Source: Candidatus Latescibacterota bacterium (GTDB lineage: Bacteria > Latescibacterota > UBA2968). From it: a stretch of DNA of 64,000 bases. Position 1 is the stretch's first letter; each line of letters begins with the position of its first letter. Below are positions 1 to 51,550 of this stretch, piece by piece. Under the pieces are notes generated by a model. The model was not told the DNA's origin. It saw only the letters and a program-made list of their open reading frames with translations, and did not search any database. A program made the position numbers and the translations under genes. Location: contig OZ240241.1 of assembly GCA_965198115.1 (NCBI GenBank), forward strand, positions 3,200,001 through 3,264,000, written 5' to 3'.

Positions 1-590
1 CGACTCAGCGCTTCTCCGAATGTGCTGGCATCTAAGTGCTCGAATGTCACCGACGCGAGCTCACACCCTTTCGGCGATGTCTCCGCGGGATGAGCAGATT
101 CCGGGCTCCATTCGATGAAAAACGGCAGCGGCTCCACCTCTGCCTCTCCGAAATTGTTCCCGACTCTGAGCGTCTTCCAAGCCAGGTTGATCCCATCGAG
201 CGTCGTACGGGCGCCGTCTCTGAACAGGATCTGATCGAAACCGGCGGCCCGTGCGTCCCGCTCAACCGCCAGAAGGTCAGGCGTCCGCACCGCCCACGTG
301 ACGAGACGTGGCTTTTCGAGCGATCTCAGATCGATCGGGAAGTTCAAATTCGCCTGAGCGGGGTCCGGGGCGATGACCTCCAGATACTGCCGATTGCCCA
401 GAGACAACAGTGCGTTTCGCGTGCCGACACCCGGATGCACGCCGCCGACCTGGGCGCGCAAACCCACACGCTCCTCGAGCCAGGCGATCCCACAATCGAG
501 ATCGGACGTGCCGAGAAGCACGTGGTCGACCACGTGACAAGCTTCGTTGGGGGATGTCCGATCCAGAACCAATTCCTTAGAACTGCTCAC
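1..590 (-). CDS. VOC/glyoxalase-like (Glyoxalase_3) family protein, runs off the window start
   Basis: Not in the ORF track. Manual minus-strand translation from GTG 590 gives ...VVDHVLLGTSDLDCG...GGVHPGVGTRNALLSLGNRQYLEVIAPDP...LPFFIEW, typical motifs of the family; no stop before base 1. Confidence 0.85.
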   Translation of the reverse strand, partial: MSSSKELVLDRTSPNEACHVVDHVLLGTSDLDCGIAWLEERVGLRAQVGGVHPGVGTRNALLSLGNRQYLEVIAPDPAQANLNFPIDLRSLEKPRLVTWAVRTPDLLAVERDARAAGFDQILFRDGARTTLDGINLAWKTLRVGNNFGEAEVEPLPFFIEWSPESAHPAETSPKGCELASVTFEHLDASTFGEALS

Positions 591-714
591 ACAAGTGGTT
601 TGTGACACGTGTCCGATTCGCGGGTTCTCTTATAATATGAGGAGCCCCTGCTGCCTCCGAGCGTTAAAGAAGGCGAACCCGCTCATCCACATCGCCCTGT
701 TCCAGGAGCCTCTC

Positions 715-1230
715 GTGCGAACCGATCGATTCCTCACGCTTTTGGTCTTCCTACTCGCCTCATCGGCCGAGTCGGCGGACATCGCCCCCGACTTCAACTT
801 GAAAACACCGGAGGGCAAAAGGCTTCACCTGCAAGCCATGTTGGAGGAAGGGCCCGTTCTCCTCGACTTTTGGGCGACCTGGTGTAAACCCTGCCTCAAA
901 GGCATGCCCAAGATCCAGTCCATCTACGAGACGTATCGTGAACGGGGCCTTGCAGTCGTGGGGGTGAACGAAGACGGCCCACGCGGGCAGGCCAAGGTAA
1001 AGCCTTTCGTCCGCGCACGGAAAATCACCTTTCCCATTGCGCTCGATTCCGACGGCCGGCTGATGAAGCGCATTCGTGCCGTGACCCTGCCCACGACCAT
1101 CCTGATCGATCGCGACGGAGAAATCGTTCTGCGTCAGAGTGGCTACTCACCCGAAGGCGAACAGGCTCTGATCGACGCCATCGAATCTCTGTTGACACCG
1201 ACCCGAGACGGGGAATCAGCCGAATCGTGA
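715..1230 (+). CDS. TlpA/ResA-like thiol-disulfide oxidoreductase, exported
   Basis: LLDFWATWCKPC motif and LPTT cis-Pro loop; signal peptide after GTG 715 with AGGAG RBS at 704-708. Confidence 0.9.
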   Translation: MRTDRFLTLLVFLLASSAESADIAPDFNLKTPEGKRLHLQAMLEEGPVLLDFWATWCKPCLKGMPKIQSIYETYRERGLAVVGVNEDGPRGQAKVKPFVRARKITFPIALDSDGRLMKRIRAVTLPTTILIDRDGEIVLRQSGYSPEGEQALIDAIESLLTPTRDGESAES

Positions 1231-2795
1231 GCTGCGCGTCTCATCATCCCCGACTGTTCTACGCCGTGCTTCTCCTGCTTTCTCTCGGGCCTGGCAACGG
1301 CTCAGCTCAGCTTTCCTTCACCAGTCTGACCGAAACGCAGCGAGGCCGGGTCCCCAACGAAGACGCTGAGGCCTATTCCAATTTCTACGAGCAGCTCAAC
1401 GTCGACTACATAACCAACCGGATTCAGGCCGGAGGACGGCTAGAAGTTTACCGCGCCACCGCAAGCGATCGAAGTTTGACCTTCCTGAGCCAGCGATATC
1501 TCTCCTGGTCGACCGGGCCCGCCTACCTGACAGCCGGCAATTTCCAGGGCATCCTCGGAAGAGGACTCACGCTCCGCGCATTCGAGCTCCCGGGCGTCAT
1601 CCTCGAGAACACCCTGTTTCGGCGTCGACACACGAGTACGTCCGATATGGAAGGTGTTTTCGGATCCTGGACGCACGACCGTTTTGAAATCAAGGCTCTC
1701 TCGGGTCGACCGGTAGCGGGCGACATTCCCCCCGGTTTCCCCGACACCCTTAACACGTTCGATCGCCTCGTCGGTCTCGGCGGCGATCGTCGGCAGGACT
1801 GGGTCACGGGCGGGGAAGTCAGTTTCGGCCTCCGCAACTTCCGAGTGGGAGCAACTGCGATTCATCTACGTCCCAAGCGCAGCGACCGCAGCCACGCGTG
1901 GTCGTGGCTCGCCGGTCTCGATCTGACGCCCACCCTCTCCCGGCTCGGAATACGCGACGCCTACGGTGAACTCTATGTAGAAATCGCCAGACGCGAGGGG
2001 ACGACCCCGGGGGGACACGGTCGCTACGTCTCCTCGGATTTTGGCGTGGGATCCTTCGGACTGAGCATCGAGTACAAGGATTATGACAACTTCAATCTCC
2101 TCGCCAACGATCCTCCCCAGCTCGTCCGGGAGCACTCTGCCTTCCTGCTGAACAGAACGACGCATGTCCTTGAAACTTTCAACGAGAAAGGCTACCAGAT
2201 CGAAGCCATCTATCCGGTCCCCGGACTCGGCACTGTGACGGGCAACGTGAGCTACGGAAAGAATGTGCTGGCGCCGACTGTCTCGACCGTGTTCGACGAA
2301 CGGTTCGTCTCACTTGACCTCGATGTCTTGCCGCCCACCCACACGGCTTCCGTCTTTTTCGATTGGGGAAAGGACGAGTTGGACGGGCGCCGTGCCCGGA
2401 GGACGGGTGGCATCCTCCTTGGGACGACGGCTGTGACCGAGCAGACCTTCGAGCTCGATCTGCAGCTTCAGCGAGGGAAGCTTACATTGAGTGAGGAACC
2501 TTCCTACTGGGACACGTATGGCGCGCTCTCGTGGCAGTCGTCCCGCGGTTTTGGTATTGCCCTCGTCGCGGATCGATCGACCGATCCTCTGGAAACGGAC
2601 ATTCCAACGACGTTCGATATCGCGGAGACCGAACCGGTCGTCTTCTGGTCGGTTAACGTGAGTGGACGGTTCGGCCCACACGAGGGATTGCTCTTCATCG
2701 GCGAAAGACGAGGCGGAACCGCGTGCACGTCCGGGACGTGTTATGAAGTGCTGGCGTTCAGAGGAGCGGAATTCCGGCTGACGACAAGATTCTAA
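1227..2795 (+). CDS. DUF6029-like outer-membrane beta-barrel protein
   Basis: Signal peptide, GNFQGILGRGLTLR segment, C-terminal RRGGTACTSGTCYEV...LTTRF ending in Phe; overlaps the TlpA stop (GTGA). Confidence 0.7.
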   Translation: MSCASHHPRLFYAVLLLLSLGPGNGSAQLSFTSLTETQRGRVPNEDAEAYSNFYEQLNVDYITNRIQAGGRLEVYRATASDRSLTFLSQRYLSWSTGPAYLTAGNFQGILGRGLTLRAFELPGVILENTLFRRRHTSTSDMEGVFGSWTHDRFEIKALSGRPVAGDIPPGFPDTLNTFDRLVGLGGDRRQDWVTGGEVSFGLRNFRVGATAIHLRPKRSDRSHAWSWLAGLDLTPTLSRLGIRDAYGELYVEIARREGTTPGGHGRYVSSDFGVGSFGLSIEYKDYDNFNLLANDPPQLVREHSAFLLNRTTHVLETFNEKGYQIEAIYPVPGLGTVTGNVSYGKNVLAPTVSTVFDERFVSLDLDVLPPTHTASVFFDWGKDELDGRRARRTGGILLGTTAVTEQTFELDLQLQRGKLTLSEEPSYWDTYGALSWQSSRGFGIALVADRSTDPLETDIPTTFDIAETEPVVFWSVNVSGRFGPHEGLLFIGERRGGTACTSGTCYEVLAFRGAEFRLTTRF

Positions 2796-2985
2796 GGCGA
2801 TTCGCCCGATATCCGCAGTCATCCAACGTGTCAAGGCCAATCACACCGATTCCAGATTTTAGACTTTTGTGATTCTTTCTACGTTGGAATCGCCCATATT
2901 TTAGGGTCGGAAAGTCCGGAAACAGAAAAGGGCCGTAGATAACTGGCTGTTTACCATCCATTTAGCAATTGTCGAGAAAATCGAA

Positions 2986-4269
2986 ATGCGAATCATCACG
3001 ATCGCTCTCGCCGGATGCCTGATTTTGGGTCTCTCTTCGACGGCCCAGTCTCAGACCCGGCCCGGCAACCCGATTCACGACTTTACTCTGCAGGATCTGA
3101 ACGGGAACAGCCACCGCCCGAATCAATACAGCGGTCAGGTCCTTCTCCTCTTCCTCCTCGGCCATAACTGAGGCATTTGTAGAGCGGCGGCGCCGCTCGT
3201 GCAACGTGAAGTCGTCGATGTGCACCGGAAAAAACCCGTGCAGATGCTGGGCGTCGGGGAATGGCTCGCAGTCGCAGCTGTCCCTGTTCCGTTCAGTGAC
3301 GGGGGTCGACTTCCCGCTGCTGCAGAGAGCGGGAACGGGCGGAATCCCCTGGGGTCTGGGCGTTGAGAACATCGTCGTGGTCAACCAGGAAGGAACCATC
3401 CACGACATCTTCGACATCTCGGATCGTCGCCGGCTCAACGAGGCGGTCGACTTCCTGCTCACACCCGTGCCTGCGCCGGTATCCCGGCTTAACCGATCCT
3501 CGCTCGACTTCGGCTCAACCGGAATCGTCGGAACCGACATCAGCATCATCCTCACGGTCGAAAACACCGGAGACGCGCTCCTCGAAGTCTCGAGCATCAC
3601 GTCGGACCACTCCGACATACGGTTCGATCAGAGCACGTTTACGGTCAACCCCGGGAGCCGCGAAGACGTCACCGTCACCCTCTCCCCGGCGGATGCAGGC
3701 TCGATCTCCGGTCGCGTCACGGTCACCACAAACGACCGCACCTGGACGCTACTCGTCGACCGGATCACCATCGAACGGCCGCTGCCGATGATCGCCCTAC
3801 CGGCATCTATGCTCGACTTCGGTACGATCGAGGTTGGACGCGCCGATTCCCGGGGGCTGGAGATTCGGAACGATGGACCGGGTCCGCTGAACGTGACGGA
3901 TGTGCGGACGGACATTCCGGGCATCACATTCTCCGCCCGTGTCTTCACCGTAGCTGCAGGTGAGGTTTCCACGATCACCATCCTCGTGGACGCCCAAACC
4001 GAGGGCCTGATCAGCGGCATCGTCGAGATCATCAGCAACGACCCCGATATGATGAGCTCGACGTCACGGTCTCCGCTACGGCAGAGATCGACGTCGCAGA
4101 TGCACGCGCAGACTTCGATGGCAGCGGCACGATCGACTTTACCGACTTCCTAGGCTTCGCGGTCGCCTTCGGTACATCCGATTCGGCCTACGACATCAAC
4201 GAGAATGGCCAGGTCGACTTCGCAGACTTTCTGACCTCTGCACAGAATTTCGGGAGAGTGGTAAACTAA
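2986..4269 (+). CDS. Secreted selenocysteine (UxxC) redoxin + two Ig-like (choice-of-anchor D-like) domains + EF-hand/dockerin-like C-terminus; two apparent frameshifts
   Basis: DFTLQDLNG...VLLLFLLGHN-TGA(3169-3171)-GICRAAAPLVQ continues in frame; frame changes near 3257 and 4050; C-terminus ADFDGSGTIDFTDFLGFAVAFG...DINENGQVDFADFL ends at TAA 4267-4269. Confidence 0.8.
3177..3205 (+). promoter_or_regulatory. Bacterial SECIS-like hairpin
   Basis: TTGTA-GAGCGGC-GGC-GCCGCTC-G-TGCAA stem-loop just 3' of UGA 3169, with G in the apical loop. Confidence 0.6.
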
Positions 4270-4326
4270 GGGTTTGCCACGAAATAAGTGCTGCACTTTT
4301 CAAGGTAATGATCTTACGCTCGGAGT

Positions 4327-5535
4327 GTGGACGTCGAAACTCTCCGAACGAAGTATGAAGCCTTGGCTCCGGTGCTGACGGAACGCACGCGTCGTCTGTG
4401 GGCCGCCACGGAAGCCGAAGCGTTGGGTCACGGTGGGATCGCGATTGTGGCTCTGGCGACAGGAATGTCCAGAGAGCGGATCTTTCGTGGCATTCAGGAG
4501 TTGAGGTCGGACGAACCTTTGGACCCGGCTCGCATCCGGCGTCCAGGCGGCGGTCGTAAGCGGAAGGCCGACACGGACCCGACGCTGTGGCAGGACCTGA
4601 ATGATCTGGTCGAGCCAACGACTGCGGGGTCGCCTGACGACAATCCTCTGAGATGGACATCGAAGAGCACTCGCAAACTGGCCGCCGAGTTGCAAGCGAT
4701 GGGGCATTCGGTGAGCCCCAGGATCGTTGCCAATCTCCTGCACGAACACGATTACACGCTGCAGGCGAATCGGAAGACAAGGGAGGGATCTGCACACCCG
4801 GATCGGGACGCTCAGTTCGTTTACCTCGATGATCGGATTAGCCAGCAGCAGCAGCAGGGCCTTCCCGTTATCTCGGTGGACACCAAGAAGAAAGAGTTGA
4901 TCGGCGACTTCAAGAATCCTGGCCGAGAATGGCGACCCAAGGGAGACCCGGAGCGTGTGAAGGTACACGATTTCATAGTGCCTGCTCAGGGCAAGGCGAT
5001 CCCTTATGGAGTGTATGATCTGAGCCGTGATGAAGGCTGGGTAAGTGTCGGTATCGATCACGACACGGCCAGCTTCGCCGTGAATGCGATCCGAAGTTGG
5101 TGGAAGAACATGGGACGGCCCGCCTACGGCACTTCGACGCATCTGCTAATCACGGCGGACGCAGGCGGCAGCAACGGCGCCAAGACGCGGCTGTGGAAGT
5201 GGGAGCTGCAGCGCTTTGCGAATCGCACTGGCCTGACGATCACCGTATGCCACTACCCTCCTGGCACTAGTAAGTGGAACAAGATCGAACATCGCCTGTT
5301 CTCCTTCATCGCTATGAACTGGCAAGGCAAGCCCCTGGTCAGCCTGGCTGCAACCGTGAATCTCATTGCCGGAACGACCACTCAAGCCGGTCTCCGAGTA
5401 CGCTCCGAGATCGACAAGCGACCCTACCCTAACGGGGTCAAGGTGACCGATGAACAGATGACCCAAATCGATCTCACTCCGCACGATTTCCACGGCGACT
5501 GGAACTACACGATCCGGCCAATGGCTCAACATTGA
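4327..5535 (+). CDS. ISAzo13-family DDE transposase
   Basis: 402 aa; ISVDTKKKE, ITADAGGSNG, PPGTSKWNKIEHRLF motifs. Confidence 0.95.
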   Translation: MDVETLRTKYEALAPVLTERTRRLWAATEAEALGHGGIAIVALATGMSRERIFRGIQELRSDEPLDPARIRRPGGGRKRKADTDPTLWQDLNDLVEPTTAGSPDDNPLRWTSKSTRKLAAELQAMGHSVSPRIVANLLHEHDYTLQANRKTREGSAHPDRDAQFVYLDDRISQQQQQGLPVISVDTKKKELIGDFKNPGREWRPKGDPERVKVHDFIVPAQGKAIPYGVYDLSRDEGWVSVGIDHDTASFAVNAIRSWWKNMGRPAYGTSTHLLITADAGGSNGAKTRLWKWELQRFANRTGLTITVCHYPPGTSKWNKIEHRLFSFIAMNWQGKPLVSLAATVNLIAGTTTQAGLRVRSEIDKRPYPNGVKVTDEQMTQIDLTPHDFHGDWNYTIRPMAQH

Positions 5536-5553
5536 GATCGACCGTTTATTTAT

Positions 5554-6973
5554 GGCTATATCCGGATCTCTCAACGAGATGAAGTGGGTGAAGGTGCCGT
5601 GGTTCCTGGCATGGGGGCGCGGTTAGCGTGTGCGGAACCTCTTCGGAATCTGCTCAGGGATGTTTATGTCTCCGACGGTAAGGAAGATCATATCGTTGAA
5701 TGCGTCGAGTGTGCGGAATCCGCTGGCTCGGTTCTTGACGATTTGGACGATTCGGTTGAGGCCTTCGGCGATGGCGTTGGTAAGACGCGTGTTCACGAAT
5801 GCGAGGACGCCGAAGAAGTGCTGTCGCAGGGTCCTGACGAACTTTCGCAGGGGTTCAAGTCGACTTCTGAGTGCGGACGTCGTCCAGCATTTCAGGAAGC
5901 GTTCGGCAGCCCAGGGCGCTTTGTATTCCCAGAACTGCTCGAACTCGTCCTTGAGTCTCCAGGCTCTATAGATTCGGTAGTTCGCCTTCTCCAGTGCTTT
6001 GAGTGTCCGAGTATCCCCTCTGGAGCGTGTCGCTGAGTGCCGGTAGAGGAGCCATCGGAGGCCCTTCATGGCTTTGCGCTCATCCGGGGCAGCTTTACGC
6101 CACTGGTCCTTACGGACCTCGTCAACGGCGGCATTGAGAGCCTTGACGATGTGAAAGCGATCGAGGACCAGCTTGGCATTCGGACAGTGTTCCTGGATGG
6201 CTCCGATGTAAGCTTCGCTCATGTCGCAGCAGGCCCACTCGATCTTGGATCTCCGGTAGGGACTGAGAGCCTCTGTGAAGAACCGATCGATCGTTTTACG
6301 CGCCCTGCCGCGGCCAACCCACACCACGCAGGAGCGGTCCAGATCGTAAACGAGCGTGGCGTACCTGTGACGCTTGGCGTAGGAGATCTCGTCGATCCCG
6401 ATGGTTTTGAGCCCTCGGATACGATGACCTTCACGAAGCCGCGTGATGGATCGGTGACGGAGATCCGACAGCGTCGAGGCAGAGATGCGCAGTAACTCGG
6501 ACGCCGCCTTCTGCGTCATGGTCTGGCAGTAGCGCAGCATGGCATACTCGAAGCGATACGTCACCCGAGAGAACCGCTCCGCCCACGGAATCTCCTCGAC
6601 CACACGACCGTGGGTAGGACACCGAATCTCCCGAGGATGGTAGAGAAGCCAGACCCTCCACCCGCACACCGGAATGTCACGCCACCGACGCGGATGGGGC
6701 ATTGTGCGGACGATTTTACCTCGACGGCCGCACTCCGGACAACAACAACCATTCTTATGTGGCTTTACGGCGATGACGAAGCAGCTTCTCCCCTCAAACT
6801 ACCAGCTGACAACACGGAACCCCTTGAATCTCAGCAGTTTCGATAGTAATCTGCTCCCGGTCATAGGTCGCACCCCCTTCGCTTTGATTGTCCTACACAC
6901 ACAACCAAGCGTAGGGAACGATCTATGACCTTGTCATTCTATAGTTTCACCGTTGAGAAACCCGGATAGAGCC
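5554..6973 (-). mobile_element. ISL3-family IS copy 1 (1420 bp)
   Basis: Terminal IRs GGCTATATCCGGATCTCTCAACG / CGTTGAGAAACCCGGATAGAGCC; 8-bp TSD TTATTTAT (5546-5553, 6974-6981). Confidence 0.95.
5623..6864 (-). pseudogene. ISL3 transposase with early nonsense codon
   Basis: TGG in copy 2 is TAG here (6799-6801); remainder has IGIDE, CCDMS, LDRFH, AEGLN motifs. Confidence 0.85.
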
Positions 6974-7029
6974 TTATTTATTCCGAACCCTAAGAGCCGT
7001 TCGCGAATACTCAAGAGAGCTTGAGCGGC

Positions 7030-47688: not shown

Positions 47689-49124
47689 CTACGGTTCAGC
47701 CGGCTGTTCTGTCGTCGTCCACCCCGCTGTCCAGTCATCCTCGTCGTTCATTGCACCAAGGAAGGTCACAGGGTCGAAGAATCCATCGTCCGGGGGCGTC
47801 GCGGCCCCGCTCAGCGCCGGCGAGCCCGACGACACCCGGAAATCGGGCACGGTCAAGTTGAAAGCATCCACGATCATCGGATCCGCCCCGAATTGGTTGC
47901 TCCCGTCTCCGATCGACCAGATTTCCTCGCTGAAGCCATCGTCGTCCGTGGCGAAGTTTCCCGCTGCGTTGAACAGAATCGTGTTCGCCAACGTGAGGGC
48001 ACCCCCGTCGGCTTGCGCGAACGTCGGCGCATTGTCTACGTCCACGCCCCCATTGTCGAAACCCGTCACGACGAAGTTCCTGAGTGTGGCAGCCGTGCCG
48101 CCTCGGAGCAGAACGCCGATGTCACCCTCGGGGCCGCTCGGATCCCCGATCAACGTCACGTTGTAGATCGTCGGGTTCGAACGGGGCGTGGCGTCGTTGT
48201 TGTTCGCGTCGTTGTCCGCCTCGATTCCGTTATCAGCATCATCGCCTCGCTGTTGCGCGATCCAGAACTGGCCCTTGCCAACCCATCCGTCCGTCCAGTC
48301 GAAGCTGTCGTCCCGAACACCGGTGCACAGCAGATGCTTTGCGTTCACCGTTCCACCGAAGAACTCGATTCCGTCGTCCTGGTTGAAGTGAACCTGTACG
48401 TAATCCACCAGTGTACCGGACCCCACTCCCTGGAAAGCGATGCCGTTCAGCTTGCTATCCAGGGCAAACTCGAAGCCCGCAAACTCGACGCGAAGGTAGC
48501 GCAAGATGCCGCTGTCATCCTCGGGGTCCGACCCGCCGTAGTGTCCCGTGTCCCCCTCACCCATCGCTGTCTCTCCGGTGTTGATCGGGGCGCGACCGTT
48601 CAGGACCAGACCGCCCCATTGTCCCCGCGCACGACTTCCTTCGGCTGCTTCGCTCGTCATCACGATCGGCGCTCCAGGCAGACCATCCGCGATCAGCTGG
48701 CCGTCCTGAGATACGACGAGTGTGCCCGTCGTTGCCGTCTCCCCATAGATCACGACGCCCGGAAGAACGATCAGCCTCGCTCCAGCCTCGACGAACACGG
48801 CCCCACGCAGCAGATACTCGCGATCGGACGTCAGCACTCTGTCTTCGGAAATCGCGCCCTCCAGAACCTCCAGTCGCCCACCGGCAGAACGTCTTCGTTG
48901 AACTGCCCCGTAAATTCGATGAAATCGCCGAACTGGACGATCCCGTCCCAGTCGATGTCGTAGGTCGGATGCGACCCTTCGAACTGACCGGCGAACAGGA
49001 TGAAATCCTCGAAGCTGATCGTGCCATCCGCATCGAAGTCGACCCGTGCAGGTTCGATCTGGGCGGAGGACGTCGCGACCAGGACGTAGAACGTTAAAAT
49101 CGTGGCGAAGAAGGTCCTTCTCAC
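47689..49124 (-). CDS. Secreted protein: N-terminal EF-hand/dockerin-like pair + beta-helix-like domain; one apparent frameshift
   Basis: DFDADGTISFEDF/DIDWDGIVQFGDF, frame change near 48872, then GQWGGLVLNG, DDSGILRYLRVEFAG, DDGIEFFGG, DDSFDW. Confidence 0.75.
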
Positions 49125-49367
49125 AATACGTATTCCTTCCACAGTGGATGGTTCCAGTCGTCTTTCGTGACCGCCGTCTCCAGTCGACATGGAGGTCGCG
49201 TTTCAGCCAGAATCTAAGACAAAATCGGATCGCTCTGTCCAGAAAGGGGGCGAAATCCTTACCAGCTGGTTTCCGAATCTTGTCCGGCCAGCCCCGATGG
49301 ACCTATAGTCAAAAACGCTGTGGGCAAGGTCAGGCGAAACGTCAACTCGATACGATAGGCGCATACT

Positions 49368-51112: not shown

Positions 51113-51550
51113 CTACACGTCCGCCAGAACCTGTTCCGTATGCGCTCGAGCGACGACATCGTCATACGCCTTCTCGACCTTGCCGTCCGTCCCGATCACA
51201 TACGTGATGCGCTTGGCCGAACCGTCGCTCTTGTCCTGACAGGCACCGTAGCTCAGACAAACCGCTCTTTCAGTGTCGCACAAGAGCGGATAAGGGAACG
51301 ACTGCTCGTCAGCAAACTTGGCGTTCGCTTCGACAGGGTCAGTACTCACACCCACAACCTGGATATTCTTTGCTTCGAAGTCTTGGATTCTGTCCCGGAA
51401 TCCGACACCCTCAGCCGTTCAGCCGCCGGTACTGGCGCGAGGATAGAACCACATCAGCACACGCTTCCCCGCGAAGTCCGACAGCGTGACCGTCTTACCC
51501 GTATGATCCTGAACCTCGAAGTCCGGCGCATTGTCACCCACGTTCAGCAT
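51113..51550 (-). CDS. bcp: Selenocysteine-containing BCP/PrxQ peroxiredoxin (145 aa, Sec44)
   Basis: MLNVGDNAPDF...WFYPRASTGG-TGA(51419-51421)-TAEGVGFRD...VGVSTD; TGA occupies the peroxidatic Cys of PxxxTxxC; GAGG RBS. Confidence 0.9.
51380..51406 (-). promoter_or_regulatory. Bacterial SECIS-like hairpin
   Basis: GTC-GGATTC-CGGGACA-GAATCC-AA-GAC starting about 12 nt after the UGA. Confidence 0.6.

Follow-up and report, generated by a model that had tools for sequence, protein, structure and literature searches.

The window, a 64,000-nucleotide stretch of a Candidatus Latescibacterota genome (8.43 Mb, one contig), contains a forward-strand run of three genes: a TlpA-type gene, a gene for a DUF6029-like beta-barrel and a broken redoxin gene with an in-frame TGA, at whose stop codon an insertion element begins (Table 1). 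The redoxin gene opens with the ATG at 2986, and its first 61 codons run up to a TGA in the context LLGHN-TGA-GICRAAAP, as the first-pass annotation of this DNA had described. That annotation read the gene as a secreted selenoprotein in which a UxxC redoxin is followed by two Ig-like domains and a paired EF-hand or dockerin-like tail, and most of this outline holds. Read-through residues 26-90 match AhpC-TSA (PF00578) at 28.3 bits (cut-off, 26), so redoxin sequence does continue past the TGA; the proposed signal peptide, judged by eye, agrees with the hydrophobic N termini of homologues; and the two Ig-like domains are recognized as choice-of-anchor D (NF012200) at 90.2 bits against a cut-off of 45 in the intact copy described below. 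The multidomain architecture is kept in relatives. The expectation that standard annotation would miss such a protein was also borne out, as the five database relatives found are 300-346 aa long, compared with 429 aa for the whole protein.

Pfam, a structure prediction and the closest solved domain agree in giving the redoxin an AhpC-TSA/redoxin fold of the TlpA-ResA-like kind. In the predicted structure (pLDDT 92.6), the domain adopts a thioredoxin fold with a helix that begins directly after the selenocysteine (Sec) position. The closest solved redoxin domain is PDB 2LS5 (E 3.7e-26 by profile; rmsd 2.1 over 147 columns by fold), an uncharacterized putative disulfide isomerase from Bacteroides thetaiotaomicron that consists of a single Cys-type domain. 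When the whole protein was used for the fold search, the matches were filled by ciliary ASH-domain chains, from which no function follows.

Table 1. Features at the redoxin locus, in window coordinates
Feature	Position	Strand	Basis or remark
TlpA/ResA-type thioredoxin-fold protein, WCKPC, predicted periplasmic	637..1230	+	AhpC-TSA 87 bits, Redoxin 72 bits
DUF6029-like outer-membrane beta-barrel	1227..2795	+	PF19494 47.5 bits, cut-off 27
Cys-x4-Cys of barrel (TGC 2724, TGT 2739)	2724..2741	+	Invariant; predicted hairpin, last long loop
Signal peptide, predicted	2986..3051	+	By eye; hydrophobic N termini of homologues
Redoxin domain, first part, UxxC motif HN-U-GIC	3052..3255	+	Sequence, Pfam, homologues
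TGA read as selenocysteine 62	3169..3171	+	Homologue column; selA/selB/selC/selD present
SECIS-type hairpin	3174..3208, family-conserved core 3186-3197	+	Folding and pairing conservation
First break, net -5 nt	3256..3258	+	Alignment of four copies; contigs of X1, X2, X3
Redoxin domain, second part, out of frame with first part in window copy	3260..3469	+	Sequence, model
Two choice-of-anchor D / ASH-type Ig-like domains	3470..4090	+	NF012200 (two stretches), PF22544, PF15780, model
Second break, one C missing relative to intact copy	4061..4062	+	Also missing in duplicate; contigs of X1, X2 have C
Dockerin-like tail: two EF-hand-like loops, helix after each, then stop	4105..4269	+	Profiles, model
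ISAzo13-family element at stop codon	4269..5553 (transposase 4327-5535)	+	NF033519 573 bits; outside the system

We asked whether the TGA column is conserved among homologues. Among 38 homologous frames, 37 have TGA in this column and one has TGT; these frames come from the best 30 loci of a 61-genome search (54 genomes matched), include the intact copy of the same genome, cover two families and are open behind the TGA. A profile built from 11 Cys homologues detected the redoxin family in 119 of the 168 genomes of the phylum, and nearly all of the 150 matches listed, out of 266, have one internal TGA. In a tree of 42 hand-picked rows, the redoxin family forms one clade separate from TlpA proteins (100/100), with Cys forms nested at several places among the Sec forms. 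One database match to the redoxin comes from a source named Gemmatimonadetes. A peptide-pattern scan of genome contigs gave 11 loci, chiefly matches to the Ig part and none of the close redoxin family. The genome also contains the machinery for Sec insertion: selA, selB, selC (tRNA-Sec) and selD all score over their cut-offs, and selD carries an in-frame TGA of its own. Neither of the two conditions under which the first-pass annotation would have given up the Sec reading, a genome lacking Sec machinery or homologues with neither Cys nor TGA in this column, was borne out.

The 7-bp hairpin that had been noted behind the TGA is present at 3182-3198 (loop, 3189-3191) and extends to 15 pairs and -18 kcal/mol in the 40 nt after the TGA. 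It lies within the published SECIS consensus limits as they stand in the available text of PMC13188914: a loop of 3-9 nt with a G in the first two places, a stem of 4-16 bp, an energy of -7.5 kcal/mol or lower and a distance of 16-37 nt from the UGA. In the window, the loop lies 17-18 nt past the UGA and its first base is G. The corresponding stretch of the intact copy adopts a similar fold and shows two compensatory changes relative to the window (U-A to C-G and A-U to C-G). Across 34 distinct sequences, 133 of 136 cells are paired in a core of four pairs that closes a four-base loop with G as its first base; an alternative pairing register fits worse, at 76% versus 84% of cells paired, and was rejected. 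The five-pair helix outperforms 500 shuffles and every slid control, a result inflated by the kinship of the sequences. At +18, a third codon position, G occurs in 36 of 36 sequences even though three different amino acids are found there; a frame containing N bases was left out of this count. With the core defined on Sec sequences, it is complete in 31 of 41 Sec homologues versus 1 of 11 Cys homologues, six of the latter being from another phylum; within the phylum, the Cys count is 1 of 5. Seven other TGA frames in the genome, including selD, likewise fold a hairpin about as far from the TGA, with a G in its loop. Tested against synonymous recoding, the energy of the hairpin gave p = 0.10 for the window, p = 0.01 for the intact copy and p <= 0.05 in 6 of 37 TGA sequences; because this test is weak, we did not use it as main evidence for a SECIS.

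What exceeds chance is the conservation of the TGA column and of the pairing; hairpin energy alone is weak evidence. We consider it nearly certain, on these comparisons, that the TGA of the redoxin family is read as Sec, and we infer that SelB and the hairpin direct decoding of the UGA. If the TGA were instead a plain nonsense mutation in a Cys gene that has decayed, this would suit a genome rich in broken genes and the nonsignificant energy of the window hairpin. On sequence evidence, however, that explanation is already contradicted by conservation of the column, since the TGA recurs there in two families with open frames behind it; a single TGA in nearly all matches listed across the class, and the nesting of Cys forms among Sec forms, speak against it as well, and we regard it as exceedingly improbable.

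The genome holds further candidate selenoproteins. A second likely one lies in the window at 51116-51550 (-), a BCP/PrxQ-type peroxiredoxin with a TGG-U-T (TxxU) motif, its TGA at 51419-51421 and a downstream hairpin. Four more redoxin frames with TGA are found at G000:C1:3585770-3586114 (-), 4086045-4086389 (-), 6231744-6232130 (-) and 5943144-5943380 (-); two of the four have the motif WASW-U-GC, one AAW-U-GFC and one a deiodinase-like SFT-U-PPF. The frame at 3585770-3586114 stands between selB and the tRNA-Sec gene. A separate tract, G000:C1:2870558-2872531 (-), packs 20 tRNA genes into about 2 kb, like the arrays of phages or islands.

Four copies of the redoxin gene are present in the genome. 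The unit at 507-4268 of the window, with TlpA and barrel, is duplicated at C1:1133078-1136839, with two differing sites beyond the first 22 bases and both breaks in common. The copy at C1:120986-122275 encodes an intact protein of 429 aa in which the TGA at codon 62 is the sole internal stop, and a fourth copy (C1:612566) is truncated. Two shorter paralogues are also broken, one by a frameshift and the other by an element. The intact form was found as well in runs X4, X5, X6, X9 and X18, from five other studies; in X6, X9 and X18 the barrel region is without real cover, which says nothing on its absence.

The first-pass annotation had placed frameshifts near 3257 and 4050. At the former site, 3256-3258, a net 5 nt are lost; we take this break as real because contigs of two samples (runs X1 and X2 from one, X3 from a second sample of the same study) span it without difference. 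Besides shifting the frame, this loss takes out the Asp of a G-x-D-x-W-N-G motif that is invariant in 24 of 24 aligned proteins, and programmed frameshifting at 3257 was rejected because an invariant residue is lost. The second break lies at 4061, not 4050, and is unconfirmed: the C that is missing in the window and in the duplicate is present in the single covering contig of X1 and in that of X2, and either an assembly error in the window or a bubble between copies that was collapsed may account for the break.

Through the 5-nt loss the window copy has no open frame across the gene, whereas C1:120986-122275 has one, and we hold with high confidence that the window copy is a pseudogene. It could be argued that the gene works and that both breaks are assembly errors, since the second break is not in the contigs of the two runs holding the window form, and the SECIS and 5' part still look selected, with 20 codons that differ synonymously from the intact copy and 7 that differ non-synonymously. 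Contigs in three runs from two samples nevertheless span the first break, which is common to the duplicate locus and deletes an otherwise invariant Asp, and this makes a working window gene highly unlikely. The barrel-linked copies in this genome are dead, and only the unlinked intact copy could work.

Several other features of these copies are recorded here. The 3' part of the window gene (3258-4060) is 97% identical to C1:121263-122065, while the 5' part is 88% identical; the first break sits at this boundary, and the truncated copy at C1:612566 starts there too. This pattern suggests gene conversion between redoxin copies. Runs X1, X2 and X3 contain yet another form of the gene, which at window position 3744 continues into other sequence. 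The stop codon is TAA in the window copy because the ISAzo13-family element starts at 4269, and TAG in the other two full-length copies. This element and an ISL3-family element adjoin at window 4269-6975; the genome carries 75 near-full copies of the former and 228 of the latter, a very large recent expansion.

The two genes upstream of the redoxin, which the first-pass annotation had overlooked, are conserved partners of it. The TlpA gene could also start at GTG 715 in place of 637, and its WATxCKPC motif is invariant in 17 barrel-adjacent TlpA homologues. The barrel is assigned to DUF6029 by its score, by a C-terminal C-x4-C loop and by its model, which has 24 strands (pLDDT 84.8, pTM 0.81); the PF19494 match spans part of the family model only. 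Its close homologues come from sources named Candidatus Latescibacterota (59% and 49% identity). Both Cys residues are invariant in 46 of 46 aligned sequences and sit on a predicted hairpin (strands 470-474 and 477-481) that lies between strands 23 and 24 of the barrel, with a tip pLDDT below 50. By usual topology, the last long loop of such barrels faces outward; with the Cys pair on an outward-type loop, the pore would be the only route by which a TlpA in the periplasm could reach it. The best fold matches of the barrel are the ushers FimD (Z 19.3) and PapC (Z 18.5), matches that are generic at 9-14% identity and show no function.

We examined how often barrel and redoxin occur together in the phylum. 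Among 168 genomes, the barrel is found in 102, every one of which also has the redoxin; in 17 the redoxin occurs alone, and 49 lack both. Some of the matches in those 17 of 66 barrel-negative genomes are weak and may be other redoxins. Barrel and redoxin lie within 2.5 kb of each other in 69 of the 102 genomes (66 and 3 from two comparisons), are apart in 27 by the matches listed, including all 21 of genus g4, and are unplaced or apart in 6 more. In two orders and in Bacteroidota, the linkage is kept in different orientations. Redoxins without a barrel also occur: G001, a genome of the same genus that is 95% complete, has an intact Sec gene at the syntenic locus with neither TlpA nor barrel, and all three genomes of family f4 have the redoxin but not the barrel. 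Because linked genes can be lost by one deletion and related genomes are not independent, the co-occurrence overstates the coupling.

Outside this phylum we sampled Bacteroidota, where PF19494 is found in 39 of 151 genomes. At 21 hand-picked barrel loci, a WCxPC TlpA lies no more than two genes from the barrel in 18, and an Omp28 or redoxin CxxC protein is nearby in 16 (Omp28 in 13, a Cys redoxin in 3); the other 5 have no second thioredoxin-fold neighbour. The three Cys redoxins are members of the same subfamily and have a lipoprotein-type N terminus or a type IX tail. Two unusual fusions were seen among relatives beside barrels. At L123:2917-4779 (+), a barrel-adjacent Sec redoxin is fused to a serine-hydrolase / penicillin-binding-type domain and a type IX-type tail, and at L079:10932-12911 (+), beside a second, divergent barrel of G052, one frame combines LVIVD repeats, an Ig domain, a W-U-PVC redoxin and a dockerin-like tail.

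The description of the tail as a paired EF-hand or dockerin-like domain was upheld in part. Type I dockerins consist of two repeated segments, each a calcium loop plus a helix, and the tail has two D-x-D/N-x-x-G-x-I/V-D-F-x-D loops with a helix after each in the model. EF-hand_1 scores above its cut-off, but the tail stays below those for type I dockerins (Dockerin_1, PF00404, 20.3 versus 22.9 bits; NF041540, 18.2 versus 29 bits), and its best solved-structure matches are calmodulin-type EF-hands. The tail of one relative does reach the dockerin cut-off (29.3 versus 29 bits). The genome has 56 frames with this dockerin-like domain, 41 of which carry it within 30 residues of their stop, and cohesin gives 12 matches in 9 frames, 4 of which also have a type IX-type tail. 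SprA, DsbD and 19 type IX tails are also present in the genome, and a profile scan found no type IX type A sorting domain on the intact copy.

Such a domain is present on relatives from a sister order. There, a redoxin is adjacent at 14 of the 15 barrel loci fetched, with UxxC in all 14; by eye, 12 of the tails are type IX-type, one is dockerin-like and one is short, and TIGR04183 is passed by 6 of the 10 scanned. This exchange of dockerin-like and type IX tails suggests a role in surface placement for the dockerin-like tail as well. We infer that the redoxin is exported, and it probably resides at the cell surface, judging from these comparisons of tails. Its tail would bind cohesins of type IX-tailed scaffold proteins that hold the enzyme outside. 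Frames that combine cohesin, a dockerin-like domain and a type IX-type tail occur at G000:C1:8209469-8211505, 5024476-5027295 and 4277801-4279387 and are candidate surface scaffolds. Cellulosome-like scaffolds have reportedly been described in Latescibacteria. In the window itself, a small frame at 48834-49202 (-) encodes nothing but a hydrophobic stretch at the N terminus and a single dockerin-like domain.

We compared the redoxin and its neighbourhood with known systems. UxxC redoxin-type selenoproteins are listed families in Table 1 of PMC13188914: a Prx-like thiol:disulfide oxidoreductase (PF00578), a redoxin (PF08534) and a protein like thiol-disulfide isomerases (cd02966). The Latescibacterota redoxin has the same AhpC-TSA/redoxin fold, Sec at the attacking Cys and downstream SECIS, but differs from those families, as described in the available text, in its signal peptide, Ig-like stalk, dockerin-like or type IX-type tail and barrel neighbourhood; that text, as far as available, makes no mention of dockerin, Latescibacter, signal peptide, secreted or periplasm (PMC13188914). 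HBP35 of Porphyromonas gingivalis is an exported thioredoxin-motif protein with measured thioredoxin activity that is held at the surface by a C-terminal sorting domain, according to the portions consulted of PMC2907840 and PMC4674972; unlike the Sec redoxin, it has Cys and a type IX tail and binds hemin. Exported selenoproteins are known in the SAO system, as the accessible part of 10.1101/2022.07.06.499078 describes.

No selenoprotein model of NCBIfam claims the redoxin family. The redoxin reaches 25.4 bits with NF053656 (TUGYCR-motif thioredoxin-fold (seleno)protein; the motif here is NUGLCR or NUGICR), and the Ig domains reach 40.6 bits with NF041425 (OS_HP2 (seleno)protein), both far below the 100-bit cut-offs. 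By sequence, the redoxin resembles a ResA/TlpA-type disulfide oxidoreductase; it falls within the broad PF00578 UxxC class and outside every curated selenoprotein model. The literature covered, which excludes most subscription journals, yielded no description of the Sec redoxin architecture or of a TlpA-barrel-redoxin or TlpA-barrel-Omp28 trio, and nothing relevant on selenoprotein with Latescibacter or on Latescibacter with dockerin and cohesin.

A similar arrangement is the Bacteroidota trio of TlpA, DUF6029 and Omp28 (PF11551), which likewise has a TlpA, a barrel with a C-x4-C loop and then an exported CxxC protein. The third gene there is Omp28, a Cys protein of another subfamily, whereas in Latescibacterota it is an AhpC-TSA/redoxin-type Sec protein. 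The resemblance to Omp28 is of position and role only, and Omp28 gave no match to three pieces of the window redoxin gene at E 0.1. The porin-cytochrome conduit MtrCAB passes electrons along a haem chain through a large barrel to a surface enzyme. It is alike in layout only (periplasmic carrier, large barrel, surface enzyme), having a haem chain where the TlpA-barrel-redoxin set has thiol/selenol pairs; MtrB (6r2q_B) matches the barrel at Z 15.5, ranking among unrelated barrels and showing no function.

Our preferred reading, held at somewhat better than even confidence, is that the intact paralogue is an exported UxxC Sec oxidoreductase with Ig spacers and a dockerin-like tail, likely fed by TlpA and the Cys-pair barrel. 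SelB-directed decoding of the UGA would yield a UxxC redoxin that is exported and displayed at the surface on the tip of its Ig stalk. DsbD would reduce TlpA, TlpA would reduce the Cys pair of the barrel, and this pair would in turn reduce the Sec/Cys pair of the surface enzyme, which could then reduce or reshuffle disulfides of surface proteins. With Sec, the site would be more reactive and oxidation-resistant. Such a thiol relay across the outer membrane, from TlpA via the barrel to the surface enzyme, is a tentative proposal that falls a little short of even likelihood. Slightly more tentative still is its fuller version, in which transfer takes place inside the pore and a dockerin-cohesin scaffold, instead of a type IX tail, docks the Sec surface enzyme.

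Two other explanations of the same neighbourhood have to be weighed. The barrel might be an export or attachment pore, for the redoxin or for polysaccharide, rather than an electron conduit, with a structural Cys pair and a TlpA that keeps the cargo reduced before export. The usher translocation pores among its best fold matches would fit, as would the four Bacteroidota loci at which type IX cargo without a thioredoxin match lies beside the barrel; in addition, the sole paper that we found on DUF6029 raises, in the text available, a possible polysaccharide pore with a role in secretion on the basis of profile similarity (PMC9603273). Those fold matches are generic, however, at the low identity given above; the recurring neighbours are thiol-redox proteins of two different subfamilies; and with type IX-type tails on many of the partners and SprA present, a second pore is not needed. 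We consider this explanation unlikely.

Alternatively, the Sec redoxin could work alone in the periplasm or at the surface, reducing peroxide or disulfides from small thiols, with the linkage merely inherited and the tail a calcium-binding appendage. Its retention without a barrel in G001 and family f4, its unlinked position in genus g4 and the sub-threshold dockerin scores of its tail would all be expected on that account. It sits poorly with the presence of the redoxin in every barrel-positive genome, with a linkage kept across orientations, two orders and Bacteroidota, and with relatives that swap the tail for a known outer-membrane sorting domain, and we judge it improbable. An exported Sec oxidoreductase likely fed by TlpA and the barrel remains our preferred reading. 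UxxC redoxin selenoproteins being already known, what we describe is a real selenoprotein family in a new arrangement, together with a relay that is testable but unproven.

The window copy itself, a pseudogene, adds little. The family to which it belongs is a selenoprotein family present in 119 of the 168 genomes of an uncultured phylum and cut in two by standard gene calling. To our knowledge, exported, surface-sorted bacterial selenoenzymes have hardly been described. As the third member of a conserved TlpA-barrel-redoxin module, the redoxin makes a long-open question testable, namely the electron source of thioredoxin-fold proteins on the outer face of Gram-negative cells, and the Cys version in Bacteroidota can be tested in culturable strains. 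If true, the relay would be a haem-free counterpart of the porin-cytochrome conduits and would account for the recharging of surface thioredoxins.
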